The translations under genes were made by a program, and so were the position numbers. Below are positions 8,391 to 36,482 of a DNA stretch of 64,000 nt, in pieces. The notes beneath the pieces were generated by a model, which was given only the letters and a program-made list of their open reading frames with translations, was not told the origin of the DNA and did not search any database. Source of the stretch: Tubulanus polymorphus (Eukaryota; Animalia; Nemertea); NCBI RefSeq assembly GCF_964204645.1, contig NC_134036.1, positions 7,726,812-7,790,811 on the forward strand, given 5' to 3'. Each line of letters begins with the position of its first letter. The stretch's first letter is position 1.

Positions 8391-8419
8391 TTACTTTGTA
8401 AATATTTCACCGGATGAAC

Positions 8420-11078
8420 CCCCAAATAATAATAATTCTATACAAGATAAAGTTAAAGATGGTCTAATGAAATGCAAAATATCTATGAAAATTATCTAAA
8501 AAATCTGCTGCACCATGACCAGGTATTAAATAATTATTTCATATTAATAACACGTTCAAGATTGATTATTGAAAATTTAGATCAAGGACTAGAAAAAAAA
8601 AGAATTCTATTATGATGATTTAATTGATAATTTTAAACCAATATAGACAAAATGTGGATTTAATGTAACTAATAAAATGTGGAGTATTTGGCACCAGATT
8701 TGAAATATTTAGATGGTGATTATTATTGGCGTTTCAAAGATGACTATGATTTTAAGATATCTTCTTATAAATGTCGTGATAAAATAGTAACAAAATCAAC
8801 TTTGGCTAAATTGGAACAATCTAGAATTAAAAGAGTAAGTAATAAGAATGATTTAACTGATGTTACAGAACAAGAAATAACTCTAAATAGAAGAGAATTT
8901 AATCAAAGAAATGATTATATTTCGAAGATGATTCATGAAAATTTAGAACCAGAAACAATCCCAAAAGAAGTTATTAATTCAAAAACCAGTAAACCTAGAT
9001 CATCGGGATTTCAAACTGAAAAACTTTTACCGGAAGGAGTAATTGGTTTAACAGATCAATAAATAGAAGCTTTAACTATGTTTCATGAACAATTCCTCTG
9101 AGAAATTATTAGTATAAGAAATGAAGCTGAGAAAATTGTACATGAAAAAATTACGACTTTTGAAGATTAATCATCTAAATCAAATAAAGAATAAGAACAA
9201 TTAAGATCGGATTTAGATCGTCAAGTAATTGAAGAAATGTAATATAGACAAAATGAATTACGTTTAGAAGAAGAAATTGATAATTTAAAAGAAAATTCAA
9301 AAGTACAGAAAAAGAAAAAAAAATGATTTATTCAAATCAGGTGCTAATAGAATTTAAAGATTAAAAGATATTTTTAAATAATTATTAATAAATAAAACCA
9401 ACTTTTGAATTATCATTAAAAGATAGAATAAAATCATTATTTGAATTAAAAGGTATAACAAGATGTGTCTAAAGAAATTAGCAAAATATTTATGGGAATT
9501 ATCTAAAAAATCTGCTGCAGCATTACCTGGAATTATGGCATTAATTGATCGTTTTATTTTTAAAGTCTGTTGGAAATATTATTAGTTTTACTGCTTAACA
9601 TATTATTGTATTTTTAATTGCAGTTGTTAGTGCTATTATTTTCGGATTTTTAAATATGATAAAAAGTAGATAAGTAAGCTTTTTTATTAATAACTGGTGA
9701 ATGTAAAATATATAGATCCTTCAAATAATTCGAGAATATCTAATGCAAATCAAGCAGAACGTAATCATCATATAATTTCTCAATCCTTCAAGTAAAATAT
9801 TAATCCAAATGAAACTTTATATGTTAGAATTCCTAGATTAAATCAAAATACTTTTTATGCTTATCAAGCAGTATGTATTTATCAGCTGATAGGCTGAGAT
9901 TTCAGCCTATTCTTCTGTAAAACGTATATGGCGCCAAGTAAAACAAGATAAATTAAATAAGCTAATCCCACAAAATTTTGTAAAATATAAAGATATGAAT
10001 GAATTTACGTTAGAACAACGTAATGAAAAATGAAAAATCTTTAAAACAATGAAAAATCTTTAAAAAGATAATATTGGTTGATATTGAATATAATTGATTT
10101 TTTAGTCGTTATGTATGGAGTTTCCGACTATCCAGAAAAGATGCTGTACAAACATCAAAAGGTTCAAGAAAATTTCTTTCAGGTCCTGCGAATCCAGAAT
10201 AAAATAGAATTTGATGATGGAAAAGAATTTGATAATTCATTTGTTCATGGACTCTTAGATTTTTTAACAACATTGGATAAGAAAGCAGCTGAAGCAGAGA
10301 ACAAGAATGTGGAAATATTTTACAGCAAATAATACTTTTAAATGGATTTATATTTAACAAAAATTAATAGAAGGATATAATAATTCTTATCATTCGTCCA
10401 TTGGAATGAAACCTATTGATGTTAGAAAATATGAAAATGCTGAAATTGTTTGCCATAATTTATATGGAGCATTTCTTGTAGATGATTTTGGTGAACCTAT
10501 CTATATAAAGTTGGTCAGTAAGTAATAACAACAAAACCGTATGTCAATGAATTAGTAGATTTTGAAGGTGAAGAAGTTGATTGGTAGTTTATGAAGACGA
10601 ATTAATTCTAACTACTGAAAAACTAGAACAAGAATATAAAATTGAAAAAAAAAAAAATTAAAAACAAAAACTGCTAAAGAAAAAAATATTTTTAGTAAAA
10701 TGAGTTGGATGGCTAGATAAATTTAATGAATTGATATCATTAAGTGAAATTAAAAATATGTAAATCAATGAGGAATTATTTATATTTCAACATCATAATA
10801 TGTCATTTTCTCGTGTAACAAAATGTGGAAAAACTTATTTTTATATTGAATTCATTAGAAACTGTTTATAATAACTATTTTGATATATTAGTATTATTTT
10901 GTCTAAGATATGAATTCAATAAAACTTATAATAGGAACATTACTAGAAATACTAAAATTATTGTATTAGATCCTAGATTGTATTAGATAACAGTTAAAGA
11001 AAAATTTAGATAATTGTATTAAAATAGCAATTGATACATTGATACATCTAATACATTATTTAATATAGATAATTGTGA
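8420..11078 (+). pseudogene. Degraded Polinton fragment: 476-aa homologue, MCP 5' end, integrase, ATPase 5' end
   Basis: Collinear similarity to C 34235-30080 with many stops and indels. Confidence 0.85.
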
Positions 11079-11349
11079 CGTAAGCGGGCATTCGAAAATG
11101 AACCAAGAACCGATGACAGAGTTTCTGCCAAATCTTAAGAGAGTCAATAAGATGGTGAATCGCAATACGATATGATCGGTCGTGGCGGAATATCCTTCAT
11201 ATAATGTTTGAAAGTCCGCAGAGATAAGGAAGCGACGGTAACCGTTTTGAAACATCGTTATCTTTGTAATTCGCAATAATCATATGATTCAATATGCTCA
11301 AACTCATTGCGGTTTCATAATAATATATTCAATTATATAAAATTTGAAT

Positions 11350-14300
11350 TTGAATAGGATTTATCTAATTATCAGCATATCCACTATTTACAGATTCTAC
11401 ATTTTGAACTGTAGCCAAAGATCTCCATTCCCAAATAGGGTGGTTTCTTAAGAGGTAAATCTGCTTAACTGGAAAGCAAACATATCGATATTTTATTTCC
11501 CTTTCTATTTTCATGATGTGGAAAGAGTTTTCAACCGACATAAGAAGCCAATGAGTATAATCTTAATTGTCGAATCGCGTTAAGACTAATCAAAGCAATA
11601 GTATTTCGACCTATTGCCTAAATCTTTGAAATATGGCCAAGTTGATATCAAACTCTGGGTAGTTGATATCAAACTCTTTTTGAAGCCAACTTTCCTTTTC
11701 AAAATTTGTGGCCAGAATTTCAAAATCCCCGACTACGGGTCTGTTATGAAAGTATTCAGACCAGGAGCACATCCAGATACGTACAATACCAGTCATCGCG
11801 TTATATTGAAATGGTTGACGCCGGTACTAAACTATTTGATATGACAATTTATGGCAACGTGTGACTTTCAAAAACATTGCCACCGTAAAGTTCCGTATGC
11901 TTAGGTAACATTTCAAAATTGCTATAGTAAATACACGTTCACTAAGGAGCAAAATAGTATCGAATGGTTAGATTTTATTTTCATCCCACTTAAATCGAAA
12001 TTTAAAGTAGGATATAAAGAGTTCAAATAATGTAAGAACCAAATCAAATTGAAATCGGCGGAAACTAACCGAAGAATATCATCAACGTATCGTCGCAAAA
12101 GCTTGGGTCTACTTTCAGTGTAAAATGAATAATTGTACTTTCAAATTGTTACAAAAATAAACGAGCCAAAACAGGGGTGATTGATCCCCATAGCCATATT
12201 GAAAGTCTGTTTTAAAAAATTAGAACCAAATAGAAAATAGGAGAATTTTGTACAAAGTTCGATTAAATCCAATAGACAATCACTATCTGCGATTTCTACG
12301 GTATCCCTTGTGTTTTTATCAAAATGAAAATCAGAAGTAGCTAACTTTCTCCTAAGAAAATCGATAGAAGGTTTAAAAGTAACATTAGTGAATAAGCTCG
12401 CAACGTCAAAATATATAAATAATTTATCATGCCCAGGAATAACATTTTTAGACATTCTAATAAACCCTGATTATCATCAATATATCCACTATTTACAGAT
12501 TTTGAACTGCAGCCAAATATGCCCATTCCCAAATAGGATTGTTTCCAAAACAGGTTTGCCTGCTTATCTGAATGCAAATATCGAACCTACCAAAATGATT
12601 TCGATATTTCATTCCCCATTCATGATGCGGAAAGAGTTTACAACCGACATAAGATGCCAATGAGTTAATCTTAATTGTCGAATCGCGTTAAGACTTATCA
12701 ATTAGCAATAGTATTTCGACCTATTGCCCAAATCTTTGAAATATGGCCCAGTTGTTATCAGACTCAGGGTAGTTGATATCAAACATTTTTTGTAGCCAAC
12801 TTTCCTTTTCAAAGTTTCAAAATCCCGGCTACGGCTCTGTTATGAAAGTATCGAGACCGAGGGCACATCCAGATACGTGCTATACCAGTTATCGCGTTAT
12901 ATTGAAACGGTTGACGCCGGTACTAAACTATTTGAAATGACAATTTATACACGTTCACTAAGGAACAAGATAGTATCAAATGGTTAGATTTTATTTTCAT
13001 CCCACTTCAAGCGAAATTTAGAGTAGGATATATAAAGAGTTCAAATAATGTAAGAACCCAATCAAATTGAAATCGGCGGAAACTAACCGAAGAATATCAT
13101 CAACGTAACGTCGCAGAAGTTTGGGTCTACTTTCAGTGTAAAGAAGAAGAGCTGCGCTTTCAACGTGTTCCAAAAAACCCCAGCCAAAACAGGGGTGATT
13201 GTATTCCCCATAGCCATACTAAAAGTCTGTTTAAAAAAAAAATTAGAACCAAATAGAAAATATGAGTTTTTTGTACAAAGTTCGATTAAATCCAAGAGAC
13301 AATCACTATCTGCGATTTCTACGGTATTCCTTGTGGTTTTATCAAAATGAAAATCAGAAGTAGCTAACTTTCTCCTAAGAAAATCCATAGAAGGTTTAAA
13401 AGTAACATTAGTGAATAAGCTCGCAACATTAAAATATATAAATAATTTATCATGCCCATTTTAGCCATTCTAATAAAACCTGATTATTATCAATATATCC
13501 ACTATTTACTGATTTTGAATTACAGCCAAAGATGTCCATTCCCAAATAGGATGGTTTCCAAAACAGGTAAGCCTGCTTATCTGAAGGCAAACATATCGAA
13601 CCTACCAAAATGATTTCGATATTTCATTCTCCTTTCTATCTTTATGATGCGGAGAGAGTTTACAACCGACATAAGAAGCCAATGAGTTTAATTTTAATTG
13701 TCGAATTGCGTTAAGACTAATCAAAGCAATAGTATTTCGACCTATTGCCTAAGTCTTTGAAATATGGTCCAGTTGTTATCAGACTCGGGGAAGTTAATAT
13801 CAAACTCTTTTTGTAGCCAACTTTCCTTTTCAAAATTTAAAAATCCCCGGCTACGGGTTCGTCATGAAAGTATTGAGACCGAGGGCACATCCAGATACGG
13901 GCTATACCAGTCATCGCGTTATATTGAAATTGTTGACGCCGGTACTAAACTATTTGAAATGAAAATTTATGGCGACGTGTGACTTTCAAAAACATTGTCA
14001 CTGTAAAGTTCGGTATGCTTAGGTAACATTTAAAAATTGCTATAGCAAATACAGGTTCACTAATGAGCAAAATAGTATCAAATGGTTAGATTTTATTTTC
14101 ATCCCACTTAAATCGAAATTTAATAGAGTAGGATATATAAAGAGTTCAAATAATGTAAGAACCTAATCAAATTGAAATCGGCGGAAACTAACAGTAACAT
14201 TTTTAGACATTCTAATAAACCCTGATTATCATCAATGTATCCACTATTTACAGATTTTGAACTGCAGCCAAAGATGTCCATTCCAAATTGGATGGTTTCC

Positions 14301-14790
14301 AAAACAGGTAAGCCAGCTTATCTGAAGGCAAACATCGAACCTACCAAAATGATTTCGATATTTCATTCCCATTTATATCCTCATGATGCGGAAAGAGCTT
14401 ACAACCGACATAAGATGCCAATGAGTTTAATCTTAATGGTCGAATCGCGTTTAGACTAATCAAAGCAATAGTATTTCGACCTATTGCCTAAATCTTTGAA
14501 ATATGGCCCAGTTGTTATCAGGCTCTGGGAAGTTGATATCAAACTCTTTTTTAGCCAACTTTCCTTTTCAAAATTTCAAAATCCCCGGCTACGGGTCTGT
14601 TATGAAAGTATTGAGACCAAGAGCATATCCAGATACGTGCTATACCAGTCATCGCGTGATATTGAAATGGTTGACGATGGTACTAAACTATTTGAAATTA
14701 AAATTCATTGCATCGTGTGACTTTCAATAACATTGCCACCGTAAGTCTTGGATGCTTAAGAAGCATCTCTTTAATTTTTCGACGATCTCT
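11350..14790 (-). repeat. Tandem array of degenerate Penelope-like RT-derived units (~0.7-1.15 kb)
   Basis: Repeated units with FDVASLFTNV, AMG...PVLA and RYVDD remnants; 3-4 copies. Confidence 0.75.
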
Positions 14791-16250: not shown

Positions 16251-19200
16251 TACTACTTGTAGATCCTGCTACACACGATGAATACCCCAGCGAAACGATA
16301 TCAGAAAACTCAATTCATTCTTTCACTTTTATTCATCGTTGAAAGATTCTAATTCATTTTTATATAAAATGAACACTTACTCAACCATTCAGATTAAATA
16401 AAGATCCCATGTTTTAATGTTGACTATTCAATCGATTTTGTTTCCAGTGTGCTATCAATCTAAAACAGATTGAGAAAACAGAAGGAAATTATTCTAAAAA
16501 AAGAAATCTTCACACTTAGGAGAAACTAACAACAATGAATATGTTGAATACTCACCGTTATATTCTAAAAGTTTTCGAAAATCTGATTCTGACTTGTCGA
16601 GATATCTATCACTAGGGCGTTTTGGGTATCTACAAACGAAAACTAAAGATTTAAGGTTTCCGAACGAAAATGTCAACTATAAGAATGAAATAAATTGAAC
16701 TTGAGAAATTAAACTAGGACTGAATAAAAGATTTGAATACAAAATTAATTCAGTTTTTGAAGAATGGTACTATACACCTACAACAAAATCTAACTACAAA
16801 ATCTTTGAAATGAAAGATAGTTCACGAATCCACTGATTTAAATACATTTCATGATCGTTAATCTTAATTATAATCTAAAGCTTACCAGATATGTTGGGAT
16901 TTTCTGACTTGGCTTTGGTGGGTAATCATATATCAATACAGGCTCTTTCTTCACTGGTGTACGTGCGCTATACGTGGTGGCTGGTTCTCGAATGAAGCTC
17001 TAACCAAGCGTTACCACAATACGATTTGGGCGGCGACTATTGTGTGGAAATTCGATCATACCGTAACCCAAAATTGGCACAATGAATTAGGTGTACTAAA
17101 ATATTCTAACTCTACTACTAAACTGTCTGCTTCATTTTTTATGGTGCATGCGGGTTTAATACACCAACTTCAGCGGGTTTAGAACGCGGCTACAAGACCG
17201 AAACAAGAGGCAGGAATATTCACATCACTCCTGTTTTAACTAATAGATACATGTATTCTAAAATAAAACGATGTAATTAGTTACTATATGCACCGGCACG
17301 AAAATTGACGGCCATCGGATCAATGTCTCCTTAATGGCAAATGTTATCGTTCAAAAATTTGATAATTTCAAATCATTTGTTTTGCTAAGTATTTTTAGTA
17401 AAGTCGATTCGTTTTTTTAATTGGGGACATTTGACAAGGAGGACTGAGTATGAATAAAATAAAATGTTGAAAAGTAGGAAATATTAACATAAAAACTGAA
17501 GTCATCCTCAATCCTCCTTGTGAAACATACCCCAGTAACAAACGACCGAGCCATTTTGAAAATACTTGATAACACAAAACATGGCCGAAGCCGAGAGATC
17601 AAAACAGAAGAAAGAAAATGATAAAAATTCGCCAAAAATATTCACATAAAAACTGAACTCATCCTCAATCCTCCTTGTAAACACCCCCGGTATGTGCTAT
17701 TTTCAGTTAAACAATAAATATTATTTTTCACCGAAACAGGTAAATTAAATCAATTTGGGCTTTGGTTTATTCTAGACTTGTCAAAGTGTTGAGACCAAAT
17801 GTTCTGTTTCTAAGACTCGTAGTTCATAGTTTTCCCCACATACATAACACCAGATCTCGATACAGCCCAGACACTATCTTATGCATCTTTCCACGGACAA
17901 ATTCATAAAAACCATCACATGAATATACTGATAGATATACATTCTGCCAAGTACAGTGCCTCCATCTTTATAAATGTATCGATATATTATTTGTAAAAAA
18001 CCTATACACCAACGATAAGGTTTAATTGACATACTTTTACAAGTAAAACCAGCCTACTTGTTTATAGGGCCCTTCAGAAAATTTCACATATTACATAAAA
18101 TATTGAATTAACCTTGCTTTTACATACTTAAAAAATCGTTTAAATAATAACTGACTAATATACATCTTAATTATCAGCCAAAAGATATTCATAAGTGACT
18201 TCACTCATTTATTTCGTCAAATATTGTGAATATTAAAGCAATCGTGTTTGGTCTTTCGGTATCATACATTGTAATTTACATGTACATCAACGTAACTTAA
18301 GATTGATGTGTTCAGTGGCGGCTAGGACCTTCTTAGTGACAGTCGAAACTGCAGCTTTCCCTCGTCCTCTATCTTCTTCAACACTGTACTGACAATATTC
18401 GTAGGCCTACTGTCGTCCAATGCCTCCTATGTGTGATGTCCTGTAAAAATCAAATTTACCTATAGAGTTGCGATGCATATCTTTGAAAAAAATCATTTCA
18501 GGATGATACGTACTATTTCGGATTTTGGATACTTCTCGACTGGTATGTAGCTTTAACCAGGCGCTTAATCGCTGATGTGTGCTTTATTCGTCCTTTTATT
18601 CAGTGGCTGCTATGTGGGCTGGCCTGTAGAATACAAAACTATCTATATAAATACAATCTACTCAATTGGATTTGAAAAAATAATTAGATGAAAAAAACAT
18701 ACCTTTTCTTTCAACATCTCCCTCTTTGTAGTTAGTATGTCGATTCATTCAAGTGTTGAATCGATGCCGTGTGTTTGGCTAGATTCGTCATCAGTGCCAA
18801 TACTCGTACTGCTGCCAATGCATCTGATGTGTGATGGCCTGCAAAAATCAATATCATCAATAGATTTACAATTTATAAATGCAAGTCTTTGAAAATAATC
18901 ATTTCAGGATAATACCTACCACTTTGGAATTCATGACTGATATGGGGCTTACCAGGCACTTTATCGCTGTTGTGTTTTTCATTCGCACTGTTGTTCAGTG
19001 GCTGCTATGTGGGTTGGCCTGTAGAATACAAAACTATCTATAGAAATGCTATCTACTTAATAGGATTTGAAAAACTAATTGGATGTAGAAACACGTACTT
19101 TTCGTTGCATCCCTAATTTTAGCAAGTATGTTGATTCATTCAGGTGCTGAATCGATGCCGTTTGCTAGGATAATACGTACTTCTTCGGAATTGGGATACT

Positions 19201-19254: not shown

Positions 19255-22200
19255 AAAAAAATATTATGAACAACATTTAAAATCTAAAAGTCATATTACA
19301 AATATCAATAATGATATTTCAGGTAAAGAATATTTTGATAAAGATAATGATAAGAAACAGAAGACAATTAAAAGAATAAAAAATAAATTAAACAATAAAA
19401 GACCATACATATATATTAATTCATTAGATAATAAAAAAGAAATAGAAATAACCGAGGCATTCAAAAGTGATATTGGACCAGCTGCCATTGAGTTTGAATT
19501 TCATAAAAGCAAACATTAGATGAAAATAAAAAGCTAAGTTCTAAGTTTTTAGAAAATATGAAAAATGTTATAAAAATAATTACTGAAGTTGAATACCCTG
19601 AAGTTCGTATATCTTCTTAAGTTAAATTTTTAAAATCTGAATATATAATATAAATTCCCTTTCACAACATATCATTTCAAAACAGCGTATAGATGATAGA
19701 TTAGATCAATGTTATAATGAAATAAAAAGTAAAATAGAAGAGAAATAATTTGAAGGATCGGGTTTAATATTTGATGAAATAATATTTATGACTTTACATG
19801 TTTATAACACAAAATATAATAAGTTAACTAAATCAAAACCAATTGATGAAAATAATTTATCATATTATAAAGATGATAATATAAATGGATCAAGTTATAT
19901 CAAATTACCATTTAAAACTAATGCTGTAATAAATGTACAAAATGTTTTCTATGGACAATTATACGTTGCTTACACCCAGTTGAAGATTATAAACGACATA
20001 GTTTTACATTAACACATTATAAACCATTTGAAAATAATTATAATATAGACAAGTATCCTGTTAGATTTAGAAATATCCCAAAAATAGAATGAGATAATGA
20101 TTTAAAGATAGATGTTATTCATTTAATCAAATTACCAAAAACAAAAGGTAACAATATTAAACATTTTACATTAGAACCTTTGTATTTATCAAATGATTAT
20201 GATTCAAATGATGTTATAGATATATTATATTATGAGAATCATTATATGTGGATAAAACGTATTGATTTATTTTTCAAATCAGAAAATGATTTTGATATTA
20301 AAATATATCTATGTAGAAAATGTATAACTAAATTCAGAACTGAAAGTGCATTATTAAATCATAAGCAATTATATAAAAATTATTGTAAAATAGTTTTACC
20401 AAATGAAAATGATAAAATATTAGAATTCAAAAAATATGATTACAAGAATAAAGTGCCATTTGTAATATATGGTGACTGAGTCACTCAATAAAGAAATAAC
20501 TGATCAAGATAGGAAAGAAATATATTATAAAAGAAAGAAATCAAATTCTGAAAATGATATAATTGATTATTCAGATTCTCAAATAACAAATACAATTAAA
20601 AAGATTCATCAAAGTGCTGCAGCTATTGGATTATATATAAAATCTGATTATCCATAACTAATTGAAAGTGAATATTATCATTATAGAAATGAAAATGATA
20701 CAAATAAAGAAATAATTATGACAGAAGAAGATAAAGAAGAATTTGTGTTTGCAGATAAATGTTATTATTGTGAAAAGATATTTGATTTTAAAGATAAAAA
20801 AGTTAGGGATCATGATCATTTGAATGGAAAGTTTAGAGGCGCAGCGCATGAGAATTGTAACTTACAAGCTATGAAAATCAATTTTGTTCCAGTAATATTT
20901 CATAATTTATCAGGATATGATGCACATTTATTTATAAGACAGTTGTGTCATAAAATAAAAGAAATCAATAATGAAATAGAAAGATTAAATTCAAATAGAT
21001 CAAAAGATAAAATAACAACTTATCTAGCTAAAACATCTGAGAATTATATATCTTGGGTATCTAAGATTTATAGACTCATATAGATTTTTAAGTACTTCAT
21101 TAGATAATTCATCAAAAACATTAGTTGATGATGAATTTAAAATATTAAAGCAACACTATCCAAACAATGATCATTTTCAATTAATGAGATATAAAGGCGC
21201 AATTCCATATTGATTTATAAATTGCATAAGGATTTTAATATAACTGAATTATTAAAAGAACAATTCTATGATGAATTCAAAAATGAATATGTGAAAGATG
21301 AAGTCTATAATAGAACATTGAATATTTGGAATCATTTTGGAATGGAAAATCATGGACAATTAGTAGATTTATATTTAAAATCAGATGTATTATTAACTGA
21401 TATATTTGAAAGGTTTAGAGATGTAAATCAAAAATATGTTAATATTGACCCATGTCATTGTCATTCTAGTCAAGGTTTAACTTGGGATCGTGGTTTAAGA
21501 TTTACGGATATAAAAATGGATTTGTTAACAAATTTAGACCAATTATTGTTATTCGAAAAATCTATAAGATGAGGTGTTTCAGGTGTATTAGGTGATATAT
21601 ATTTCAATGTAAATGATAACCCTGGATATAATCTATTATATATAGATGCAAATAGTATATATGGTTGGGCAATGATGGAACCTCAGCGTTATGGAGTATT
21701 TGAAATAACTGAAATTTTACAGTATGAAAATAATGATAAATTTGATTGGAAGAAAATAATTCTAGATATTTCGGATGATTCAGAGACTGGTTACTTTTTG
21801 TTGTAGATTTCGAATATCCTGAAAACATTAAATTTAAATCTATAAATCTAGCATACTGTCCCGAACATAAAACTGTAACGCATGAAGAATTATCAAATTA
21901 TCAAAACAGAATTAAACCCGATAATCATATTCGTACAGAAAAGTTAATGGTAACTCAGGAAGATAAATGTAATTATGTAGTACATTATAGAATGTTAAAA
22001 TGCTATTTGAATCAAGGAATGATCCTAAAAAAGTACATAGATATATTTCATTCAGTCAATCTAAATGGTTAGAGAAATATATAGATTTTAACACCAAACA
22101 GAGAACTAAAGCTAAAACTGATTTTGAGAATGATTTCTTCAAGTTAATGAATAATGCATTCTATGGAAAAACTTGTGAAAACATCAGAAATAGAAATGAT

Positions 22201-22862
22201 ATTGAGTTAGTCAGTAATGGCAAAAGAATTAGACATTTACAAACATATCCTAAGTTCATCGGTAACAGAATATTTGATGAAAATTTAGCTGCAGTTGAAA
22301 GGAGAACTTCTATGAAATTTAATAAACCAATTCATGTTGGAGCAACAGTTTTAGAAATATCATAGTTATTAATGTATGAATTTTACTATGACGTATTACA
22401 ACCTCATTTTGGAGAAAAGCATATAGAAATCTTATATTTTGACACTGACAGTTACATATTAAAGATAAAAACTAATAACATAACAGATGATTTAAAAACA
22501 TAAAAACATCATTTTGATTTTAGTAATTATCCTAAAGATCATGAATTGTTTAACAATGATAATAAAAAGGTGCCCGGTAAATTCAAAGATGAATTAGGAG
22601 GTGAAGAAATATAAAACTAAAACTCATGAATCAAAGAAATTGAAAGGAATAACCAAAAGCGTTGTTGAAAGAAAATATTCATTTCGAAGATTACATCAAT
22701 TGTATATTCAATGAAGAAGTTGGAAAACATAAGATGAAATGTTTAGGATCCGAAGATCATGAAATGTTTATTGAAGAGATAGAGAAGATAAGTTTAAACC
22801 CATTCGATGATAAAAGATATATTTTAGATGATGGTATACACACAGTTATGGTTGTAATATAG
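19255..22862 (+). pseudogene. polB: Intein-less pPolB pseudogene (element B)
   Basis: ORF fragments match pPolB; motif C is uninterrupted TAT TTT GAC ACT GAC AGT (YFDTDS) at 22435-22452. Confidence 0.92.
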
Positions 22863-22959: not shown

Positions 22960-23735
22960 ATGGAGAGTAAACAGTCACAAACTAACAATATTCACCATAA
23001 AAAATGTTCAAAATGTGAATTGAATAAGCCATTTACAGAATATTACACAAAAAAAACTAAGAAAGATGGTTTAAGAAACAATCGTAAAAGATGTTGGAAA
23101 CAGAAGAATAAACTGTATAATAAACAATGTTATATAGATAATATTGAAAAATATAAAGATAGAAGTAAACAATATTATCTAAATAATCTAGAAAAATGTA
23201 AAGAAACGAAAAAACAATGGAGAGAAAATAATCCAGAATATATTAGAGATTGGAAAAAAGATAATCGTGAACATTATGATGATTACAGTTATAATTATCA
23301 AAAAGAAAGGCGTCAAACAGATCTTAATTTTAAAATGAAACAATGTTTGAGAAATAGATCATCAAAATTATTCAGTAAAGAAACGCATTTAGAAACGCTA
23401 AAAAAATTCCTTGGATTGTTCGGATGAATTTCTCAAATCATGGATCATATATCAGTTCGATGATGAAATGAATAAAGATAATTATGGAAATTATTTTCAT
23501 ATTGATCACGTGTTACCAATATCTAAATTTAACACGAGTGATGAATACAATAAAAAAACTAATTTGGAATTGGAATAATCTAAGACCCATTGAAAAGAAA
23601 GAAAATAAAATTAAGTCTAACAAACTTGATATGAAATTATATTTTGATCAATTAGATAAAGCAAAGAAATTCATCGAATTATGGAATAGTGATCCAAATA
23701 ATGAACAATATGTTGAATCTTTATTGAGTGGTTAA
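22960..23735 (+). pseudogene. Free-standing HNH-type endonuclease, frameshifted
   Basis: N-terminal KKCSKC...DG motif, helical repeats, then NYG.YFHIDHVLP...WNNLRP...N..KSNK across frames. Confidence 0.75.
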
Positions 23736-27158: not shown

Positions 27159-27248
27159 AGTAATTAGAAGATGGCGTTTTCAGATCAGAGTACGAGAGTA
27201 CGAGACACCACTCATCATCACAAGTAATTTTTTTTCCTAATAAATGGG
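27159..27248 (+). repeat. Left terminal inverted repeat of element C (~90 bp)
   Basis: Reverse complement of 44319-44408 with ~2 mismatches; ends at the TAAATG start of the first ORF. Confidence 0.95.
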
Positions 27249-27570
27249 AGATAGAAAAGCATTCTTAGCAACAATAAATAACAGAATAAAACCAGCAAAA
27301 AAACAATTTGAAATAAAAAAGTTAGTTGATGTTACAAAAGAAATTGAACATAAAATATTGAAATTAGAAAAGATAAAAACTAAATATGGAGAGAAAGTAT
27401 CAGCTAATTTAAGCTACTGTAATGTTAGTACATCGCGAGAATTTAAAGTGTTTTTACCCGATAAATGGGTTTCATTGAGTACGGAGGAATTGAAAGATTT
27501 AGTAGGATTTGAAATAATATATCATGGGAAAAATGAAGACGGTCATCATGATTTAGAAATTGTTGATTGA
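27244..27570 (+). CDS. Hypothetical protein (108 aa), possibly OB-fold ssDNA-binding
   Basis: Intact in A and C and starts inside the TIR. The KTKYG...FKVFLP beta pattern suggests an OB fold (inference only). Confidence 0.7.
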   Translation: MGDRKAFLATINNRIKPAKKQFEIKKLVDVTKEIEHKILKLEKIKTKYGEKVSANLSYCNVSTSREFKVFLPDKWVSLSTEELKDLVGFEIIYHGKNEDGHHDLEIVD

Positions 27571-27910
27571 ATAAGAAATAAAAATAATGAATATCTAGAA
27601 TCCAAAATGACCTTAGTCGTTTTATAAACAACTATAATCATACAGTACATCTGTTACATATTATTATAAGAGAGTGCTTCATTTGAATATTGATCAATCA
27701 AACAGGTGTTGCACAACGTTGTTGTTATATAATAAGCACGTAGTACATACAACACACACAAGCCAGTTAGCCGGTATTGAATTACTGTGTTTTCATTAGT
27801 TGCTGAAAACGAGGTTTATTTAAATTAGCTCGGCCGTGACGACAGGAGGATAGTCATCATTCTCTCGTGATTAAAAGGAATATTTCAATGTTTTTACGGT
27901 AAGTTTTAGC

Positions 27911-28190
27911 AAAATTGCCCTATCCTCGACCTACAGAGTTTTCAGGGGATAAGCATCCCATTATTGAAAGGCGCCACGGGACGCTTATCCCCCGTCATTT
28001 CTACTTACACCCCCGGCGACCCACATCAACCGGGATCTCCTTCAATGATTGGTAGAAATCACATTATATTAAAGGCGCCTAATGTAATTTCTACCAATCT
28101 CGAAATTCGAAATCGAAGGAGAAACCCGGAGAGTGGACGAAGGTGCATTTTCAAAATGCCTCTGCTGGCCAGAGCTACTCCAGTGGTTGA
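27911..28190 (-). ncRNA. Predicted ~290-nt multibranch structured RNA with two GGCGCC-loop hairpins
   Basis: Uninterrupted 17-bp (27945-27992) and 20-bp (28047-28099) stems on the minus strand (G-U allowed); compensatory changes versus copy A; upstream TATATAA (28201-28207, minus strand). Confidence 0.75.
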
Positions 28191-28552
28191 ATGAATTGCC
28201 TTATATACTTAGCTAAAACACCTAAGTAAATGTTGTTGGTGCTAAAAAAATATGTGAAATTTGAAATTATAAATTATTCCGAATGAAAAGAATGTAAGAA
28301 TGAAAACTGATAAATGAATTATGTATTTTTAACTTAATTATGATATAATTTTTAATCAAATTAGTAATCAATTACTATGTTAATTGATTAACAAATTCAA
28401 ATTCAAATATTCAAATAAAAACAAAATAAATTAATAAAAATAATGAATATCTAGAATCCGAAATGACTTATCTGGACAATTTAATTGCTCCGCATAGATG
28501 GTGCCATAAACGGCACCCACACAGTGATAGACAAAAGTAGTGAGATATTCAA

Positions 28553-28948
28553 TTAATTTTTTTGCTTTTTTTCTAAAATATTAATCCATTTTTTTATTAT
28601 CAATTTTGGAATTTCAGAAGTATTTTCATTTTTGATAGCAGTTGGTTCAGAATTACTAATATCATGAATTTTATTTGATTTCTTATACCAATTACACCCA
28701 ATCAAAATGAATACAATTACAAATCCAACTTTAAAATATAAATATTTATCAAATATTCTACTATCAGAAGGAGTAGAAATAACAATATTTTCACCATTTT
28801 TATTAACATTTTTATTACTTATTTTTTCTTTTACAGCTTTTTTATATTCTTGTGATTTAATTCCTAATTGTCGAGACCATTCAATTTGTTTCTGAGTTCT
28901 CGGTTTTTTCTTCACAGTTAATTCCTTCACTTCTTTCACCTCGCTCAT
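28553..28948 (-). CDS. Basic single-pass membrane protein (131 aa)
   Basis: Lys-rich N-terminus, transmembrane YLYFKVGFVIVFILIGC; homologues in A and B. Confidence 0.75.
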   Translation of the reverse strand: MSEVKEVKELTVKKKPRTQKQIEWSRQLGIKSQEYKKAVKEKISNKNVNKNGENIVISTPSDSRIFDKYLYFKVGFVIVFILIGCNWYKKSNKIHDISNSEPTAIKNENTSEIPKLIIKKWINILEKKQKN

Positions 28949-29486
28949 TTATTATAGAAATATTTTTACTTTCAATATTTGAAAATGTTATAACCCCAGT
29001 TGATAATAATGTCATAAATCCACCTAATTGAAATGATAAATATCCAATCCATTTATTTAATTCAGTCATAACTAAATAATCATTTTTTAAATCGGAATAT
29101 AATCTATTTTCATCTTCAATTGGTAGTATATAATTACATAATTTACTATAACCTTTTACTACATTTTCTGATATCGCGTCATTAATTCTAGCTGTTCTCG
29201 CGGCTTCATAAATCTTAAATAATCTAATAATTTCATCTGATTTCATTGTATCTAATTCATTATAAGTTAAATTTTTACCGACAAAATTTTTACATTTTCC
29301 AGATGCTATTAATATTTCTAATTGATGTTTACAATAAAGATAATATTCATAATTATTATTTGTTGTAACATTATTTAAAGCACCATCATCTGGAGTTAAT
29401 TTTGTTTCTGTTATTCCTAAATCATCTAAAGTTTTTTCAATTGGAACATCACCATTTTTAGATTTTATTTTCTTTTCACCTACCAT
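28881..29486 (-). CDS. Hypothetical protein (201 aa) with C-terminal hydrophobic segment
   Basis: Homologues in A (fused) and B (23852-24390). Confidence 0.8.
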   Translation of the reverse strand: MVGEKKIKSKNGDVPIEKTLDDLGITETKLTPDDGALNNVTTNNNYEYYLYCKHQLEILIASGKCKNFVGKNLTYNELDTMKSDEIIRLFKIYEAARTARINDAISENVVKGYSKLCNYILPIEDENRLYSDLKNDYLVMTELNKWIGYLSFQLGGFMTLLSTGVITFSNIESKNISIINERGERSEGINCEEKTENSETN

Positions 29487-29514
29487 TTATATAACAAAAA
29501 AATTAATTGTGTGA

Positions 29515-29770
29515 TGTTGCAACTAGAATTTAACTAGAATGTAACTAGAATTCAACTAGATTAACAAGTTAGTTGAAATATTGTTGTTTGTGTTTATTTC
29601 TTGTTAAATCTAGTTGATTTTTGTTTCAACTACTAACAACTAGAATTCAACTAGAATGTAACTAGAATTAAAATAGATTAACAAGCTAGTTAAAATATTG
29701 TTAAATCTATTTGATTTTTGTTACAACTACCAATAACTAGAATTCAACTAGATTAACAAACTAATTGAAT
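29515..29770. repeat. Intergenic array of short CAACTAGA(A/T)T repeats in both orientations (~120-bp higher-order unit)
   Basis: Repeated aactagaat units plus inverted aatctagttg copies. Confidence 0.8.
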
Positions 29771-30379
29771 TTAAATAAATTCATATTTAAATGGGTGTTG
29801 TAATCTAAATAGTAATTTTGATCTTTTAATATTTTTCAACTCATCCATATATTCATTATGTAAATCATGTGGAATAATATCATTTTCCTCAAGTGCATTT
29901 TTCATTGATTTTCTATCTTTATTGTAGAATAAAACTAGAAATCTAATGTTTTCTCTAAAGTCTTTAACAATTGAATTATATTTTTGATTTAAAACCCAAG
30001 TTGTTATTCCAAAATGTCTCCCAGAGAAAGCTAAATAACATAACTCACTTTCTCTAACTTTTGAATCATGTAAATTTGCGCAATCATCTATGATAAATAA
30101 TGTATTTGATCCTTTATAAATATCAATTGCTATTTTTATACAATTATCTAAATTTTCTTTTACTGTTTTAGGATCTAATATAATAAATTTATTATTTCTA
30201 GTAATGTTTCTGTCATAAGTTTGATTAAATTCATATGTTGGACAAAATAATACTATATTATCAAAATAGTTTTCATAAACAGTTTCTAATAAATTTAATA
30301 TAAAATAAGTTTTTCCACAATTTGTTACACCAGAAATTAACATATTATGAGGCTCAAATATAAATAATTCCTTATTCAT
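29771..30379 (-). CDS. A32/FtsK-like genome packaging ATPase
   Basis: Walker A GVTNCGKT, Walker B LFIIDD, SGRH motif. Confidence 0.92.
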   Translation of the reverse strand: MNKELFIFEPHNMLISGVTNCGKTYFILNLLETVYENYFDNIVLFCPTYEFNQTYDRNITRNNKFIILDPKTVKENLDNCIKIAIDIYKGSNTLFIIDDCANLHDSKVRESELCYLAFSGRHFGITTWVLNQKYNSIVKDFRENIRFLVLFYNKDRKSMKNALEENDIIPHDLHNEYMDELKNIKRSKLLFRLQHPFKYEFI

Positions 30380-31507
30380 TTATATATTTTTAATTTTACT
30401 TGATAATATCCATTCATTGAATTTATCTGGCCATCCAACCCATTTTACTAAAGAATATTTTTTTCTTTTAATAGTTTTTGTTTTTAATACTTTTTCAATT
30501 TTATATTCTTGTTCTAGATTTTCAGTAGTTAAACTTAATTCTTCTTCGTAAAAGTAGCCATCAACTTCTTCACCATCTAAATCTTCTAATTTATAGACAT
30601 ATGGTTTTGTTGTTATTACCTTTTTTATTTTATATATTTCTCTAGTAAAATTTCGATCGTATCCTTTGTCAAATATCTTTTTATACTTAGAAATTCTAAC
30701 ATTTTGACCAACTTTAAATTTAGGTTCACCAAAATCATCTACAAGAAATGCTCCATATAAATTATTCCAAACAATTTCAGCATTTTCAGGTTTTCTAGCA
30801 TCAATAGGTTTCATTCCAATAGAAGAATGATAAGAATTATTATATCCTTCTATCAATTTTGGTAAAACATCAATCCATTTAAAAGTATTATTTGCTGTAA
30901 AATATTTCCACATTCTTGTTCTTAATGTTCTATTAAATCGTTCAACAACTGCTGCTTTTTTATCTGATTTTGTTGAAAAATATTTAATATTATGATTATC
31001 TAAGAGTTCATGAACAAGTGAATTATCAAATTCTTTTCCATCATCAAATTGTATTTTTTCTGGTTTTAGTTTATCATCCGAAAGAAATTTTCTTAAAACA
31101 TTTGATGTTTGTACAGCATCTTTTCTATAAAGTGGGAAGCTCCATACATAACGACTAAAAATATCAATTATATTCAATATCCACCAATAATCATTATTAT
31201 CTTTTTTAAGATTTTTCATATCAATTAAATCTCCTTGCCACTGTTGATCTACATAACTTACCATAGTTTTACGAGTTTTATATTTTCTAACAATTTTTTT
31301 ATGTGTTGTATATGTTGGTTGTTCTAACATAAATTCATTTATATCTTTATATTTAACTAAATTTTGTGGGATTATCTTATCTAATTTATCTTGTTTTACT
31401 TTACACCATATATTTTTGGTAGAACAATAAGCAACCGAACTCTCAGGGTTGTAATATAAATTTCTTAAATATTGTTCTTTAGTATTAGGAGTTTTTTTAC
31501 CACCCAT
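30380..31507 (-). CDS. int: Retroviral-like (rve) DDE integrase with C-terminal chromodomain
   Basis: WQGDLIDM, IQFDDGKEF, VERFNRTL; chromodomain YKIEKVL...LVKWVGWPDKFNEWI. Confidence 0.95.
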   Translation of the reverse strand: MGGKKTPNTKEQYLRNLYYNPESSVAYCSTKNIWCKVKQDKLDKIIPQNLVKYKDINEFMLEQPTYTTHKKIVRKYKTRKTMVSYVDQQWQGDLIDMKNLKKDNNDYWWILNIIDIFSRYVWSFPLYRKDAVQTSNVLRKFLSDDKLKPEKIQFDDGKEFDNSLVHELLDNHNIKYFSTKSDKKAAVVERFNRTLRTRMWKYFTANNTFKWIDVLPKLIEGYNNSYHSSIGMKPIDARKPENAEIVWNNLYGAFLVDDFGEPKFKVGQNVRISKYKKIFDKGYDRNFTREIYKIKKVITTKPYVYKLEDLDGEEVDGYFYEEELSLTTENLEQEYKIEKVLKTKTIKRKKYSLVKWVGWPDKFNEWILSSKIKNI

Positions 31508-31537
31508 TTATATATCCTTAATCTTAACTTTATATTT

Positions 31538-32784
31538 CTAATATTGAATACTATCTAATTGTGAATTTACAATATTTAATTGTGCGTCAGATATAATATA
31601 AATATGCATTTTAAAATTTTTGATTCCTTTATTCTTTTTCATGAATAATTGTATTCCATCTTTAGTGTTCTGTAGTTTTTTTCCAGAACCATGTAATGAA
31701 TTATCTTCTGTTGTTCTAAAATCTAACCATAATGCATATTTATTACCGGTATAATAATCAATTTGATTAATGTTACAATTTTCAGATGATTTTACTTTTT
31801 CATTCATAAAATGTTTTCTAATTTCTGGCCATTGATCAATCATTCTCATTCCTTGACAAAATATTTTATTCGCTATTCCTTCGATAGTTATTTCTACTTT
31901 TGTTATTTCAGGATTATAATAATTATCAACATTTATTGCACCATTAGAATATGTTGCAATAGTAAAAAATATTAATATACCTTTAATAGATCTTCTAGGA
32001 AAGTTAATATTCTCATTAATTATTTCATCATTTGCATTAATAGTTACAGTTTTAAATTTATCAATATAATCATATAATAATGAAAATCCTTGATTGTATT
32101 GAGTTTGAATTGTGCTAGCAATATTTTCATTAGTTACTGTGTTATATTCTAAACATATATTCGATAATTTATAACCCATATCTTTAACAACGCTAGATAA
32201 TACAATTTCATTTACAGGAGCAAATGTTATCTCAAATATAATATCTTCTTGAATTGCGTATTTATATAAAGGTGCATTATTATTTATCAATTCAAAGTCT
32301 AATGGAATTTTATATTTGCTTCCATAAATCTTTTTAATCAAATTATCTACACCATTATTTACTACTGCGTTATTGGCTTCAGATCTTAATTTATTTTGGT
32401 TTTCTGATTGAATTCCTTGAAATATCATATTATTTCTATTTTTTCAGTTAACCATAAATCTTTATAATGTGAAAATAAATTATAATCATCTAATGAGAAA
32501 ACTGTTTCTGGACCAATCTTTATTGTTAATTTTTTAATCAAATATCTCCCAACATTATCAACAACATAATTATTATTATTACCGATTACTTTTATATCAG
32601 CTGATAAATAAATACTATTTGGAACATAAAAAGTATTTTGTGTTAATCTAGGAATTCTAACATATAAAGTTTCATCGGGATTAATATTTGAAGGGTTATG
32701 AGTAATTATATGATGTGATCTTTCTGCTTTAATAGCATTAGATATTCTATGATTCTTCGAAGGACTTATATAACTCCCACTCAT
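31538..32784 (-). CDS. Putative double jelly-roll major capsid protein (~415 aa), split by a 1-nt deletion in an A-run at ~32440
   Basis: Beta-rich, MCP-sized and adjacent to integrase/ATPase. The degraded homologue at 46755-46800 reads WLTKENIKNMIFQG in one frame, showing the two ORFs are one gene. MCP identity is inferred. Confidence 0.65.
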
Positions 32785-32804
32785 TTATTTAACAAAAAAA
32801 TTAA

Positions 32805-34235
32805 TTATTTATTTTTGATAATGTTTACTAAACCAAAAATAATAGCACTTACAACTGTAATTAAAAATAAAATAATATGTTCAGCAGCAAAGTTAAGAAT
32901 ATTCCCAGCAGATTTCAATATAAAACCAACAATTGAAGCAATAACTCCTGGTAATGCTGCAGCAGATTTCTTTGATAGTTCCCATAAATATTTTGCTAAT
33001 TTCTTTAAACCATCTTTAACTTTATCTTGTATAGAATTATTACCTGGAGGTTTATCTGGTTTATTTGGAGTAGGAGTAGATTTTAAAGCATTTGATATTG
33101 CTAAACCAATTGTTGTAAATAACATAGTTACAGCTGTTAGAATTGAAAGAACTGTTATTCCTTCAAACTTAAATAATAATCTTATTCTATCTTTCAATGA
33201 TATTTCAGAATTTGGTTTAATCAACAAATCTTTAAAAATAACTTTTAATCTATTAATATTATAATCATATGATTTTAATAATAATTTAATTTCTTCTTTC
33301 TGTACTTCTAAATTATCTTTTAAATTACTAATTTCTTTTTCTAAACGTAATTCTTTTTGCCTATATTCTATTTCATCAATTACTTGATGATCTAAATCAG
33401 ACTTTAATTGTTCTATTTCTTTATTTTTATCAGTTAATTTTTTTTCCAAATACATAATTTTTTGATCTCCTATACTTTTATTATGTGCAATTTTATCAGA
33501 TGCAAGTCTTATACTAATAATTTCTCTAATTGCTTTATCAGAAAATATATCTAAATCTTTTAATTCTTGATCTGTTGCATCAAATAATCCATTCGGTAAA
33601 AGTTTTTCAATTGGAACTTTATTTGATCTAAGTTTACTATTTTTGGAAGTTATATTCTGTTCAGAAGTTGTTTCTGTTTCTGATTTCTTTTTGATTATTT
33701 CAAATAATTCATTAATTCTTTGTTTAAATACATCTATATTATCATCTATTTCTTTTTGTGTAACATCAGTTATTTCATTACTATTACTTATTATTTTAAT
33801 TCTAAATGTTTCTAAATTTCTCAAAGTTGATTCTGATAATATTTTATTTTTATTATTTTTATAAGTGATATCAATATAATAATCACCTTTCAAACGATAA
33901 TAACATTTACCATTATCTAAAAATTTCAATTGATCTGCTAAAAGTCCAACGTCTTCATCATTTATGTTAAAATTAGATTTTTCAATTAAATATTCTAATT
34001 TAGGTATTTTGTTTAAATTATCTAAATCTTGTTTTACTAAATCTGGGTCTAAATTTTCAGGATTTAATTGTGATTCAGCATTTTTAATATAATCAGGCAT
34101 ATTTAAATTATTGTTATATTCTGGTTCATTACCATCATTAAAACTTGTTTCATCAAAATCAGGTGGTTGTTCATCAGTTATGTTAGGTTCATCAAAAGGA
34201 TCCATTCCAATATCTTCTCCACCTTCTACATCCAT
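32805..34235 (-). CDS. Coiled-coil protein (476 aa) with C-terminal hydrophobic helices
   Basis: Acidic N-terminus, heptad region, 2-3 hydrophobic segments; degraded homologues at ~8540-9672, 47140-48010 and 60725-61300. Confidence 0.8.
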   Translation of the reverse strand: MDVEGGEDIGMDPFDEPNITDEQPPDFDETSFNDGNEPEYNNNLNMPDYIKNAESQLNPENLDPDLVKQDLDNLNKIPKLEYLIEKSNFNINDEDVGLLADQLKFLDNGKCYYRLKGDYYIDITYKNNKNKILSESTLRNLETFRIKIISNSNEITDVTQKEIDDNIDVFKQRINELFEIIKKKSETETTSEQNITSKNSKLRSNKVPIEKLLPNGLFDATDQELKDLDIFSDKAIREIISIRLASDKIAHNKSIGDQKIMYLEKKLTDKNKEIEQLKSDLDHQVIDEIEYRQKELRLEKEISNLKDNLEVQKEEIKLLLKSYDYNINRLKVIFKDLLIKPNSEISLKDRIRLLFKFEGITVLSILTAVTMLFTTIGLAISNALKSTPTPNKPDKPPGNNSIQDKVKDGLKKLAKYLWELSKKSAAALPGVIASIVGFILKSAGNILNFAAEHIILFLITVVSAIIFGLVNIIKNK

Positions 34236-35565
34236 TTACATAATAAAAAAAATAAAATTTAAAATATAATATTCCTCCGATTACAATTCCTATACAAGTT
34301 ATAGCTAATTTAGTATTTTCATGGGATTTATTATCATCATTTAGTTTAATTATATCATGTTGAATTTTATCGGTTTTAATATCACCGTGTGGGTGCCGTA
34401 CGGCATCATTTTCTGTTGTATTGTAATCATTATTTAATTTAATATTCTTAGTTTTAGTTTCAGTTGATTGAATGTCTTTTTTATTTTTTTCACCTTCCAT
34501 TAATTTTGGAGCAGTAATAATCTTTTTATTTATATCATTTAATCCAATTGAATTATTCATTGTTGCAGTTTTAATTAGATTATTATAACCAATTATATTT
34601 CCCATCTTTAATACTAAATCATTAGAAATAATTAATAGATTAGGTCCTATACAATAATTTAATCTAATATGTGATTTATCTAAATAATTTTGATATCTTA
34701 CAATGTTTTCTGGAATCGATCTATTTTTATCATTATGAATGGAATCTTCAAATAATACTTTGAATTGTTTCTGCGCATCAAATGAAGTACTATTATTTCC
34801 AACTATTGGTGATCTTGTTTCAACTTGTGCACCTAAAATACATATCAAATAAGTTCTAATTGATTGATTTATTCTTTGTATACCGGGTTTTGTAAATCCT
34901 TCACTATAAGATTCAATAAAATAAACCCAACCATTATTATTATTAATTTCATAATTATGATAAGCTCCAATTCTATGCATATAATCAATTCTTTTTATTT
35001 CATACTGTTCACCGACACCTTGCAATTTACCATGCGCTCTAAAATCGAAATTAATATTTATATTAAATTCATTACATATTTTATAAAACTTAGATAGATT
35101 AATATTATTATCTAATTCTTTAAAATATTTTGATCCAGGTAAAGGGCATTCTAATTCATTTAATATAATTCTAATTTGAAAGTATACATGAAATCTAAAT
35201 ATTGTATGAATAAATTTTAAATCAGAATATTTCAAATTTTTATCTAAGTTATTCAAGTGATCATTGCAACTTATACCACAACCAGTTGTTGCACAATAAA
35301 CAGCAAAATTTAATTGGTTCTGCCAATATTTCATATTAGATTTTACTTTATATATATGATATTCATCTCGAGTAAAAGTAACTTCATATGTATTTAATAT
35401 ATTTTCCATTTTAGAAATAAAAAACTGTGATTCAGTAACATAAATTTCTAAATTAGTTAATGAATTTAAAACTACATTTTTATATGTAATATTTTTCTTA
35501 AAATCTATTGCCGGAATATTATATTTAATTGATTTATTATATTGGAAAGCTTTTGGAAACCCCAT
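34192..35565 (-). CDS. Hypothetical protein (457 aa) with C-terminal transmembrane anchor
   Basis: Long ORF with TAAATG start, WQNQLNFAVYCATTGCG motif and C-terminal LAITCIGIVIGGILYF. Confidence 0.75.
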   Translation of the reverse strand: MGFPKAFQYNKSIKYNIPAIDFKKNITYKNVVLNSLTNLEIYVTESQFFISKMENILNTYEVTFTRDEYHIYKVKSNMKYWQNQLNFAVYCATTGCGISCNDHLNNLDKNLKYSDLKFIHTIFRFHVYFQIRIILNELECPLPGSKYFKELDNNINLSKFYKICNEFNININFDFRAHGKLQGVGEQYEIKRIDYMHRIGAYHNYEINNNNGWVYFIESYSEGFTKPGIQRINQSIRTYLICILGAQVETRSPIVGNNSTSFDAQKQFKVLFEDSIHNDKNRSIPENIVRYQNYLDKSHIRLNYCIGPNLLIISNDLVLKMGNIIGYNNLIKTATMNNSIGLNDINKKIITAPKLMEGEKNKKDIQSTETKTKNIKLNNDYNTTENDAVRHPHGDIKTDKIQHDIIKLNDDNKSHENTKLAITCIGIVIGGILYFKFYFFYYVNGCRRWRRYWNGSF

Positions 35566-35581
35566 TTATATAACTAAAAAA

Positions 35582-36016
35582 TTAATAATTTATTAATTCT
35601 TTTAATAATTTATCTTGTTCTTCAACTGTTATATGGCCATTTAAACTTATTATATAATCTAGTGTGTTCTTTAATTTATTAATTTCTTTTATATTAGATT
35701 TTATTTTTTCTTTATTACTTTTTATATTTAATTTTGAACTTATACCAGTTAAAACACTTGAACTTAATCCTAATACACCAATTGATATAGCTAAAGGTGT
35801 TAATGGACTGAATATTGCTAAAAATGTTATTACAGAACTAATTGTAACCGAACCACTTATAATCAAATAATATATAATTTTACTTTTTAAATATTTTTTC
35901 TTTTTTATCTTTAAGTCACTTTCAAATTCTAATATTTGTTTTTCTAAATATGTTTTTAATTTAGTTTTATTTATATCATGAGGAATAATATCAATACTAT
36001 CAACTTTATCTTCCAT
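35582..36016 (-). CDS. Putative membrane protein (144 aa) with hydrophobic hairpin
   Basis: ~45-aa hydrophobic stretch flanked by Lys-rich coiled coils; 5' half also present in copy A. Confidence 0.75.
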   Translation of the reverse strand: MEDKVDSIDIIPHDINKTKLKTYLEKQILEFESDLKIKKKKYLKSKIIYYLIISGSVTISSVITFLAIFSPLTPLAISIGVLGLSSSVLTGISSKLNIKSNKEKIKSNIKEINKLKNTLDYIISLNGHITVEEQDKLLKELINY

Positions 36017-36035
36017 TTATTTAGAATAAAAATTA

Positions 36036-36458
36036 CTAATTAGTAAATTTATAAGCAACAAATATAACAATAACTGTTCCACCTAAAATCCATATTATTT
36101 CATATTTCTGTTGTTCTTTACTTGGGGTATAATAATCTGATAATTTAGGTTTGTATAGATGTAATTTTTCTTTATTTGTTACCGCGTTATATAAACTCAT
36201 TGCATCATCAACTGATTGAAAATCTCTATGTGAAATCTTCTGATCATATAATTCTTTATTGATGTAATCCATATAGTTTTGCCTCTTTTCTCTATATTCT
36301 TCTGCAGCTTTATTGTATTTCTCTAACGCTAAGTTATGTCTTCTTTGTTCTCCTAATGAACTATTTTTATCAATATGTTTAAATAAATAACCACCACCAG
36401 TAAATGCTAAAACGTTAACAATTGCCGATCCTATAATAGTTATAATTGCAGAAGCCAT
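36036..36458 (-). CDS. Putative membrane/structural protein (140 aa)
   Basis: N- and C-terminal hydrophobic helices around EQRRHN plus coiled coil; conserved in copy A. Confidence 0.75.
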   Translation of the reverse strand: MASAIITIIGSAIVNVLAFTGGGYLFKHIDKNSSLGEQRRHNLALEKYNKAAEEYREKRQNYMDYINKELYDQKISHRDFQSVDDAMSLYNAVTNKEKLHLYKPKLSDYYTPSKEQQKYEIIWILGGTVIVIFVAYKFTN

Positions 36459-36482
36459 TTATTTAGCAAAAAAATTATGCAT

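Follow-up and report, generated by a model that had tools for sequence, protein, structure and literature searches.

A putative giant-virus-type homing intein in Polinton DNA polymerases of a nemertean, with signs of transfer between families and of active-site escape

Within a stretch of 64,000 nucleotides from Tubulanus polymorphus (contig NC_134036.1, positions 7,726,812 to 7,790,811; hereafter the window), the polymerase genes of one Polinton family (C) carry an insert in catalytic motif C, while a copy of a second family (B) reads through the same motif without interruption. This raises the question whether the two are donor and recipient of a homing intein, as was proposed in a preliminary description of the locus, and whether the residues at the site, DTDS in B and DTDA in C, make B immune to cutting.

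Filled and empty polymerase genes in the window

Polinton/Maverick copies are clustered in the window, intermixed with satellites and Penelope-like relics (Table 1). Copy C2 is an integrated element of about 17 kb with terminal inverted repeats of 97 nt (96% identity) and a 6-bp target duplication, TATAAA, flanking AG...CT ends on both sides. Its ORFs matched the Pfam profiles for protein-primed polymerase (pPolB, PF03175), rve plus chromo, and Pox_A32. The capsid-like gene was a split ORF with a Capsid_N match of only E 0.009, and in the search for a maturation protease no protease family was found among the 20 window ORFs scanned. An ORF adjoining the C2 polymerase gene (38805-39260, + strand) had a match to the poxvirus late transcription factor VLTF3 (E 2e-6). 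The second family C copy, C1, was 92.9% identical to C2 over 5.4 kb.

Table 1. Polinton features of the window (positions counted from its first nucleotide)
Feature	Position	Strand	Remarks
C1 pPolB gene, 3' part	1-1979	+	cut by window start
C1 intein	461-1526	+	1,066 nt, frameshift near 3' end; 68 substitutions relative to C2
Family B element	~19.2-26.5 kb
Family B protein-primed PolB pseudogene	19848-22847	+	8 aligned pieces in three frames, 13 stops in aligned frames
Empty intein site, family B	22429-22464	+	motif C ILYFD/TDSYILK; insertion point between 22443 and 22444
Broken HNH-like ORF	22960-23735	+	directly behind B polB; weak Pfam HNH match, E 0.038
Full-length family C Polinton (C2)	27159-44408	-	terminal inverted repeats, target duplication, integrase with chromodomain, A32-like ATPase, pPolB
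C2 protein-primed PolB ORF	39257-43492	-	1,411 aa including intein, intact; PF03175 E 9e-19
C2 intein	39713-40777	-	1,065 nt = 355 codons, intact; Ser1...Asn355, then Thr
LAGLIDADG endonuclease part of C2 intein	39845-40438	-	codons 114-311; D150, K237, D262

The insert sits in frame at a precise codon and is absent from homologues. Its flanks lie at 446-460 (upstream) and 1527-1547 (downstream) on the + strand in C1, and at 40778-40792 and 39692-39712 on the - strand in C2. BLASTN alignments of B with C broke exactly at this site for both C copies. The same result came from raw reads of run X7, which carries the same species label and of which about 12% was sampled (9,262 reads aligned at a threshold of at least 80% and 2,269 at one of at least 90%). 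At the lower threshold 45 reads skipped exactly the 1,065 nt, their downstream codon not being resolved, and 48 further reads joined 39703 to 40778 via nine other letters. These nine-letter junctions were of three kinds (22, 16 and 10 reads), and all 48 read T-D-S. Together the two sorts of read show that the boundary is exact and not due to chance. The boundaries derived earlier from the C flanks were thus confirmed, and the uninterrupted B string is present exactly as it had been reported.

The relation between B and C was more distant than had been supposed. The two were described as alleles of the same locus; they are neighbouring elements, but paralogues rather than alleles, 71-78% identical over the polymerase gene and 78-84% within ±100 nt of the site. 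B and C2 differed at seven positions within ±21 nt of the insertion point: the differences at -13, -1, +16 and +21 are silent, and those at +7, +8 and +9 form one codon, Ser in B and Ala in C2. Identity between B and C around the site showed no peak beyond that common to two further relatives, L041 and L042, so that the look-up for a co-conversion tract came out negative. No converted B-type allele was seen, and no filled allele with B-type flanks was present in the window. Since B is a dead, approximately 75% identical paralogue with 13 stops and no conversion signal, it is not a demonstrated recipient, and the proposed donor and recipient pair is supported only in part. What the B copy documents is the empty state, and its empty site taken alone is an ordinary boundary marker.

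Behind the B polymerase lies the HNH-like ORF of Table 1. An intact homologue of 234 aa (29% identity) occupies the same place in L042 (positions 5129-5830); C2 and L041 have none at that place. A free-standing nuclease of its own is possible for the intein-free B lineage.

Anatomy and origin of the intein

Motifs and a structure model identify the C2 insert as a class 1 intein with a Hint fold and a LAGLIDADG domain, predicted to splice and to cleave DNA. The splicing motifs comprise Ser1, block B (T83-E-D-H86), block F (D337) and Asn355 before Thr; S1, T83, H86 and D337 were invariant in all 71 rows of the alignment. The residue preceding the terminal Asn is Lys, not the usual His, as in many relatives. 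Both LAGLIDADG motifs could be recognised, FFMGDG (D150) and FYAADG (D262, in 70 of the 71 rows), and the block D lysine K237 was kept in 71/71. In Pfam, PF14528 scored above its cut-off and Intein_splicing below its own. The model built from the 71-row alignment reached a pLDDT of 93.8 and a pTM of 0.92 (pLDDT only 38 from the single sequence). Its best fold matches were the intein endonucleases PI-PkoII, TliVMA and PI-PfuI; PI-SceI also matched, as did I-DmoI with a target TM of 0.70-0.75. PI-PkoII was also matched in sequence (E 4.7e-7), and the fold matches to the PI-PkoII/PI-SceI class ranged from E 5e-17 to 1e-9. Compared with that class the C2 intein is shorter (355 aa) and about 14-17% identical.

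Between C1 and C2 the endonuclease codons differed by 20 silent and 18 replacement changes, giving a dN/dS of 0.18 (p 7e-7). This indicates that the domain was under purifying selection, a value that comes from a single pair with one broken copy (C1) and reflects past selection only. Eight of the 18 replacements fell at codons 160-163 and 264-275, right after both LAGLIDADG helices, in positions predicted to contact DNA. The share in predicted sheet segments (10/18 in 69/198 codons) was not significant (p 0.07).

C1 and C2 are mosaic, with patches of 11-25% divergence at 286-400, 3101-3200, 3501-3900 and 6680-6980 on a background of 2-5%, which shows that DNA exchange occurs between fairly distant Polinton families. 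The patch upstream of the intein (286-400, p 3.5e-6) was considered as a mark of homing and rejected, similar patches being present elsewhere.

The insertion point is one which we take to be the 'Pol-c' site of the motif C PolB inteins of giant viruses and archaea. Those inteins share with the present one the YxD/TDS insertion point, the Ser start, the Asn end and the LAGLIDADG domain, mostly at 30-42% identity, and inteins in IMG/VR giant-virus bins were 41% identical to that of C2. The present case differs from them in its host, a PF03175 pPolB of a 17-kb integrated Polinton, in its C-extein (TDA), and in the many paralogous filled and empty copies within one nuclear genome. The intein search returned 263 matches; PF00136-type polymerases made up most of the 120 listed. 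Relatives of the intein were also present at 37 viral loci, of which many belong to giant-virus bins. A quick, midpoint-rooted tree was made of 70 of the 120 listed matches (those with near-full coverage) and the window intein. In it the seven Polinton-type inteins grouped together on a single branch (SH-aLRT 100), the 64 others coming from PF00136-type polymerases. The simplest reading of this topology is a single jump from a giant-virus-type PolB to a protein-primed PolB at the homologous motif, the direction being suggested by the midpoint root. The available part of PMC5784728 lists Phycodnaviridae, Iridoviridae and Mimiviridae as families with inteins in viral DNA polymerases.

The residues after the intein were DTDS in 99 of the 120 listed matches and DTDA in 0/120; 13 had no pattern match and 8 read otherwise. 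DTDS can thus be regarded as the default site of the intein family. No other filled DTDA allele was matched in viral contigs. Relatives of the intein are also found in another kind of host protein, with type II topoisomerase domains (P0006, P0089, P0116, P0117, P0119 and P0120).

Filled, empty and variant sites in reads and relatives

In run X7 at the threshold of at least 80%, mean depth was 213 over ten intein bins and 567 over five flank bins chosen by the analyst. The ratio of 0.37 implies that roughly one third of the related copies are filled and that empties outnumber them; the coexistence of families with and without the intein in one species, as described earlier, is borne out. Raising the threshold to at least 90% reduced the precise skips from 45 to 3, among 17 skips in total (6 others started from 39703 and 8 from 39664). 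The small number of skips indicates that empty copies resembling C on both sides are rare. At the same threshold 82 reads ended at the upstream junction, compared with 172 covering position 40769 just inside the intein, so that empty copies with a C-like upstream flank do exist and are un-invaded. Every empty site with readable letters in these reads was DTDS, and two of these sites have TCT as the serine codon; the read tables do not resolve the downstream codon or flank haplotype of the filled reads. The T-D-S junctions and the drop in precise skips together imply that DTDA empties are rare or absent, DTDS being the state of those targets that are visible. From runs X5 and X6 there were only short, scattered matches. 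At both thresholds read depth over the C-terminal part of the intein (39713-40200) fell below that over its remainder, and 32 reads broke off at 40169; this points to intein subfamilies in which the second half of the endonuclease differs.

The polymerase relatives, known as proteins without DNA or host names, were compared in a tree of their exteins with 143 rows and with motif C left out; the rows were C2, a single-frame stretch of B and those 141 of the 259 proteins that passed a 200-residue filter. An intein-free clade had DTDS in 44/44 rows. The intein-bearing side (99 rows) held all 15 filled alleles, scattered over at least five separate branches, together with 81 scored and 3 unscored empties. 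The scored empties comprised 33 DTDS, 32 DCDS, 13 DTDA and 3 others. DCDS or DTDA thus made up 45/81, of which 43 lay within a single subclade of 76 rows, whose members may stem from a small number of host species. In the 18-row subclade holding the window sequences, DTDA was found in 2 of 16 empties. None of the 12 complete filled relatives in the tree was DTDA, unlike both filled copies of the window. The closest intein-free relative of C, L041, has a C-like gene layout and DTDS, from which the DTDA of C is likely to be derived.

Changes were counted in the 76 columns invariant in the intein-free clade, the tree lengths of the two sides being similar (14.1 vs 12.0). On the intein-bearing side there were 15 changes at T+1 and 10 at S+3; the intein-free clade had 0. 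Site-proximal columns were over-represented in the top ten (4/6 vs 6/70 of the others, p 0.002, with the column range chosen post hoc). In IMG/VR, polymerases with the YGD context showed an estimated 1,800 or so DTDS against 1 DTDA and 1 DCDS. Giant-virus polymerases frequently carry the intein and almost never motif C variants, so intein pressure alone does not produce such variants. The excess of DCDS and DTDA on the intein-bearing side of the Polinton tree would fit escape from cutting.

Comparison of close relatives pointed to the site itself. In the P0002 cluster (136 members, 40 examined, 15 listed) the filled allele and eight empty alleles 94-98% identical to it differed at 9-11 of the 30 residues around the site and at 1.1-5.6% elsewhere. 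The residues specific to the filled allele spanned -7 to about +44, a pattern that would fit a co-conversion tract, and all eight empties were DCDS or DTDA. Three other clusters had two or three site haplotypes each, with differences concentrated within ±6 residues. In the sister group of B, the empty alleles P0258 (DTDA) and P0123 (DTDS) differed at 7 of 1,241 residues, 5 of them within -14 to +3 of the site.

These results make the proposed immunity of B doubtful. DTDS is the default of the intein family, and DTDA and DCDS are carried by the empties of relatives. According to the available part of PMC3159444, intein endonucleases tolerate silent changes and a single replacement can abolish cutting. 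Four of the seven differences near the site are silent and of the tolerated kind, which leaves the Ser/Ala codon as the only plausible determinant. The polarity proposed for the locus appears to reverse the rule of the family, in which target sites would usually be DTDS and surviving ones DTDA. An AGY serine codon was also considered as the escape route of B, as a general rule. A first count of TCN:AGY codons gave 15:1 for filled and 36:25 for empty alleles (p 0.008), in a comparison of different host genes. A matched viral-contig test (82:24 vs 86:30, p 0.64; first 120 loci per scan, clustered at 90%) rejected the rule.

Coexistence of filled and empty sites

The reading that we prefer, at a probability of roughly 55%, is that B shows the DTDS of an intein-free sister family and that the LAGLIDADG intein of C, likely acquired once from giant-virus-type polymerases, is likely homing between co-resident Polinton copies. 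The intein would splice out of the polymerase precursor, its endonuclease would cut empty motif C DNA in other copies, and repair off a filled copy would transfer the intein with short donor flanks. An invaded site would take the donor's bases +7 to +9 by co-conversion and so become DTDA; the association of filled with DTDA and of empty with DTDS then requires no immunity. Cutting would also select escape alleles at the site (DCDS, DTDA), as it may have done in relatives. An enzyme under selection would need targets, and the visible ones are DTDS; we lean slightly towards B-type DTDS sites being still targets rather than immune. They would persist because a divergence of 20-25% and decay probably make repair from C rare. 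The majority of empties over filled copies (0.37) counts against efficient cutting, which should erode the empties.

That empties are the majority and persist in the reads is expected if the C endonuclease has switched to DTDA, a former escape allele, swept it near fixation and no longer cuts DTDS, the families coexisting through immunity in a cyclic arms race. This is possible, although we think it unlikely. DTDA is the state of empty alleles in relatives and is likely derived in C, given the DTDS of L041, and it marks both filled window copies in contrast to the 12/12 complete filled relatives; this linkage of intein and DTDA would nevertheless follow from co-conversion alone. A switch of specificity is compatible with the loss of PI-SceI cutting through one non-silent change (PMC3159444, in the part available) and with the lean of C1/C2 replacements to predicted sheet segments, but the latter enrichment is not significant. 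A selected endonuclease also needs targets, and DTDA empties amount to at most 3 reads. There is a smaller chance still, which we consider poor, that homing has not occurred in the host genome. The intein would then have been inherited with family C after past homing among free viruses only, B would be an unrelated dead integration, and the motif C variants would reflect drift or adaptation through ordinary recombination. The state of B agrees with this, its polymerase gene being a pseudogene that shares about 75% identity with C and shows no peak of identity at the site; so do the mosaic patches all along C1/C2 and the clustering of variants in one subclade. It is harder to reconcile with the concentration of filled/empty and empty/empty differences at the site in several clusters of at least 90%, with inteins on at least five separate extein branches, and with the conserved endonuclease (dN/dS 0.18).

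A wider history can be sketched tentatively, and we hold it with less than even confidence. Inteins in animal nuclear Polintons would go back to one jump from giant viruses, followed by homing between families and repeated escape from DTDS to DCDS or DTDA; in the present genome a former escape allele would have been overrun, closing a cycle of the arms race.

VSR insertions in Polinton pPolBs have reportedly been described by Jeong et al. Nuclease domains (HNH) inserted in Polinton pPolBs are treated in the available parts of Jeong et al. (10.1101/2023.08.22.554363) and Krupovic et al. (PMC11071308). In the main text of the former, as available, the words intein, homing and LAGLIDADG do not appear. 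The latter, in a single passage of the part available that names no splicing domain, suggests that nuclease insertions in polinton pPolBs are an outcome of intein invasions. The insert described here differs from these in being a complete Hint plus LAGLIDADG intein within the catalytic motif. Similar to the present case are also the viral-like polymerase inteins on nuclear scaffolds in the available part of Gallot-Lavallee et al. 2023 (PMC10710043), with spread between paralogues and empty paralogues protected by site disruption. Algae, a labyrinthulomycete and Anaeramoeba are the hosts in that study, and it is introns that protect the site, in contrast to the motif C residue changes seen here; that part of the text has 0 occurrences of 'Polinton'. 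In the openly accessible main texts and listings searched, including the available parts of PMC12220804 and PMC12721341, no Polinton pPolB was described as carrying a Hint plus LAGLIDADG intein, nor was motif C escape described. An earlier mention of Polinton inteins elsewhere is possible. What appears to be new, judged from sequence comparison, is that Polinton polymerases carry a putative homing intein of giant-virus type and show signs of homing between families and of active-site escape.

According to the parts available, metazoan genomes lack inteins (PMC5784728), and intein target motifs are thought too constrained to allow escape other than through silent changes (PMC3159444). Both statements would be challenged by a multi-copy element whose filled, empty and variant sites share one genome. 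Such an element would also let two matters be tested on natural sequences: what keeps homing inteins from reaching fixation and then decaying, and whether an altered active-site motif allows a host gene to escape.

No host gene was seen within the window, and an Rfam scan of it gave no match. Decayed Polinton fragments without a polB match lie at 8400-11100, 46470-47900 and 60740-61500 (integrase, ATPase, capsid-like and coiled-coil pieces). Broken pieces of Penelope-like retroelements with reverse transcriptase and a GIY-YIG-type part lie at 54674-56900 and 58850-59191. Their look-alike clusters were mostly arthropod, and their named eukaryotic matches were insects and flatworms (31-39% identity), with one match labelled E. 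coli. These relics make an animal nuclear context probable. A satellite of about 154 bp forms several arrays (7963-8384, 17454-17692, 50936-51830 and 59326-60744). Another family, made up of longer blocks in tandem, is present on both strands at 11365-14784, 57090-59165 and 62957-64000.
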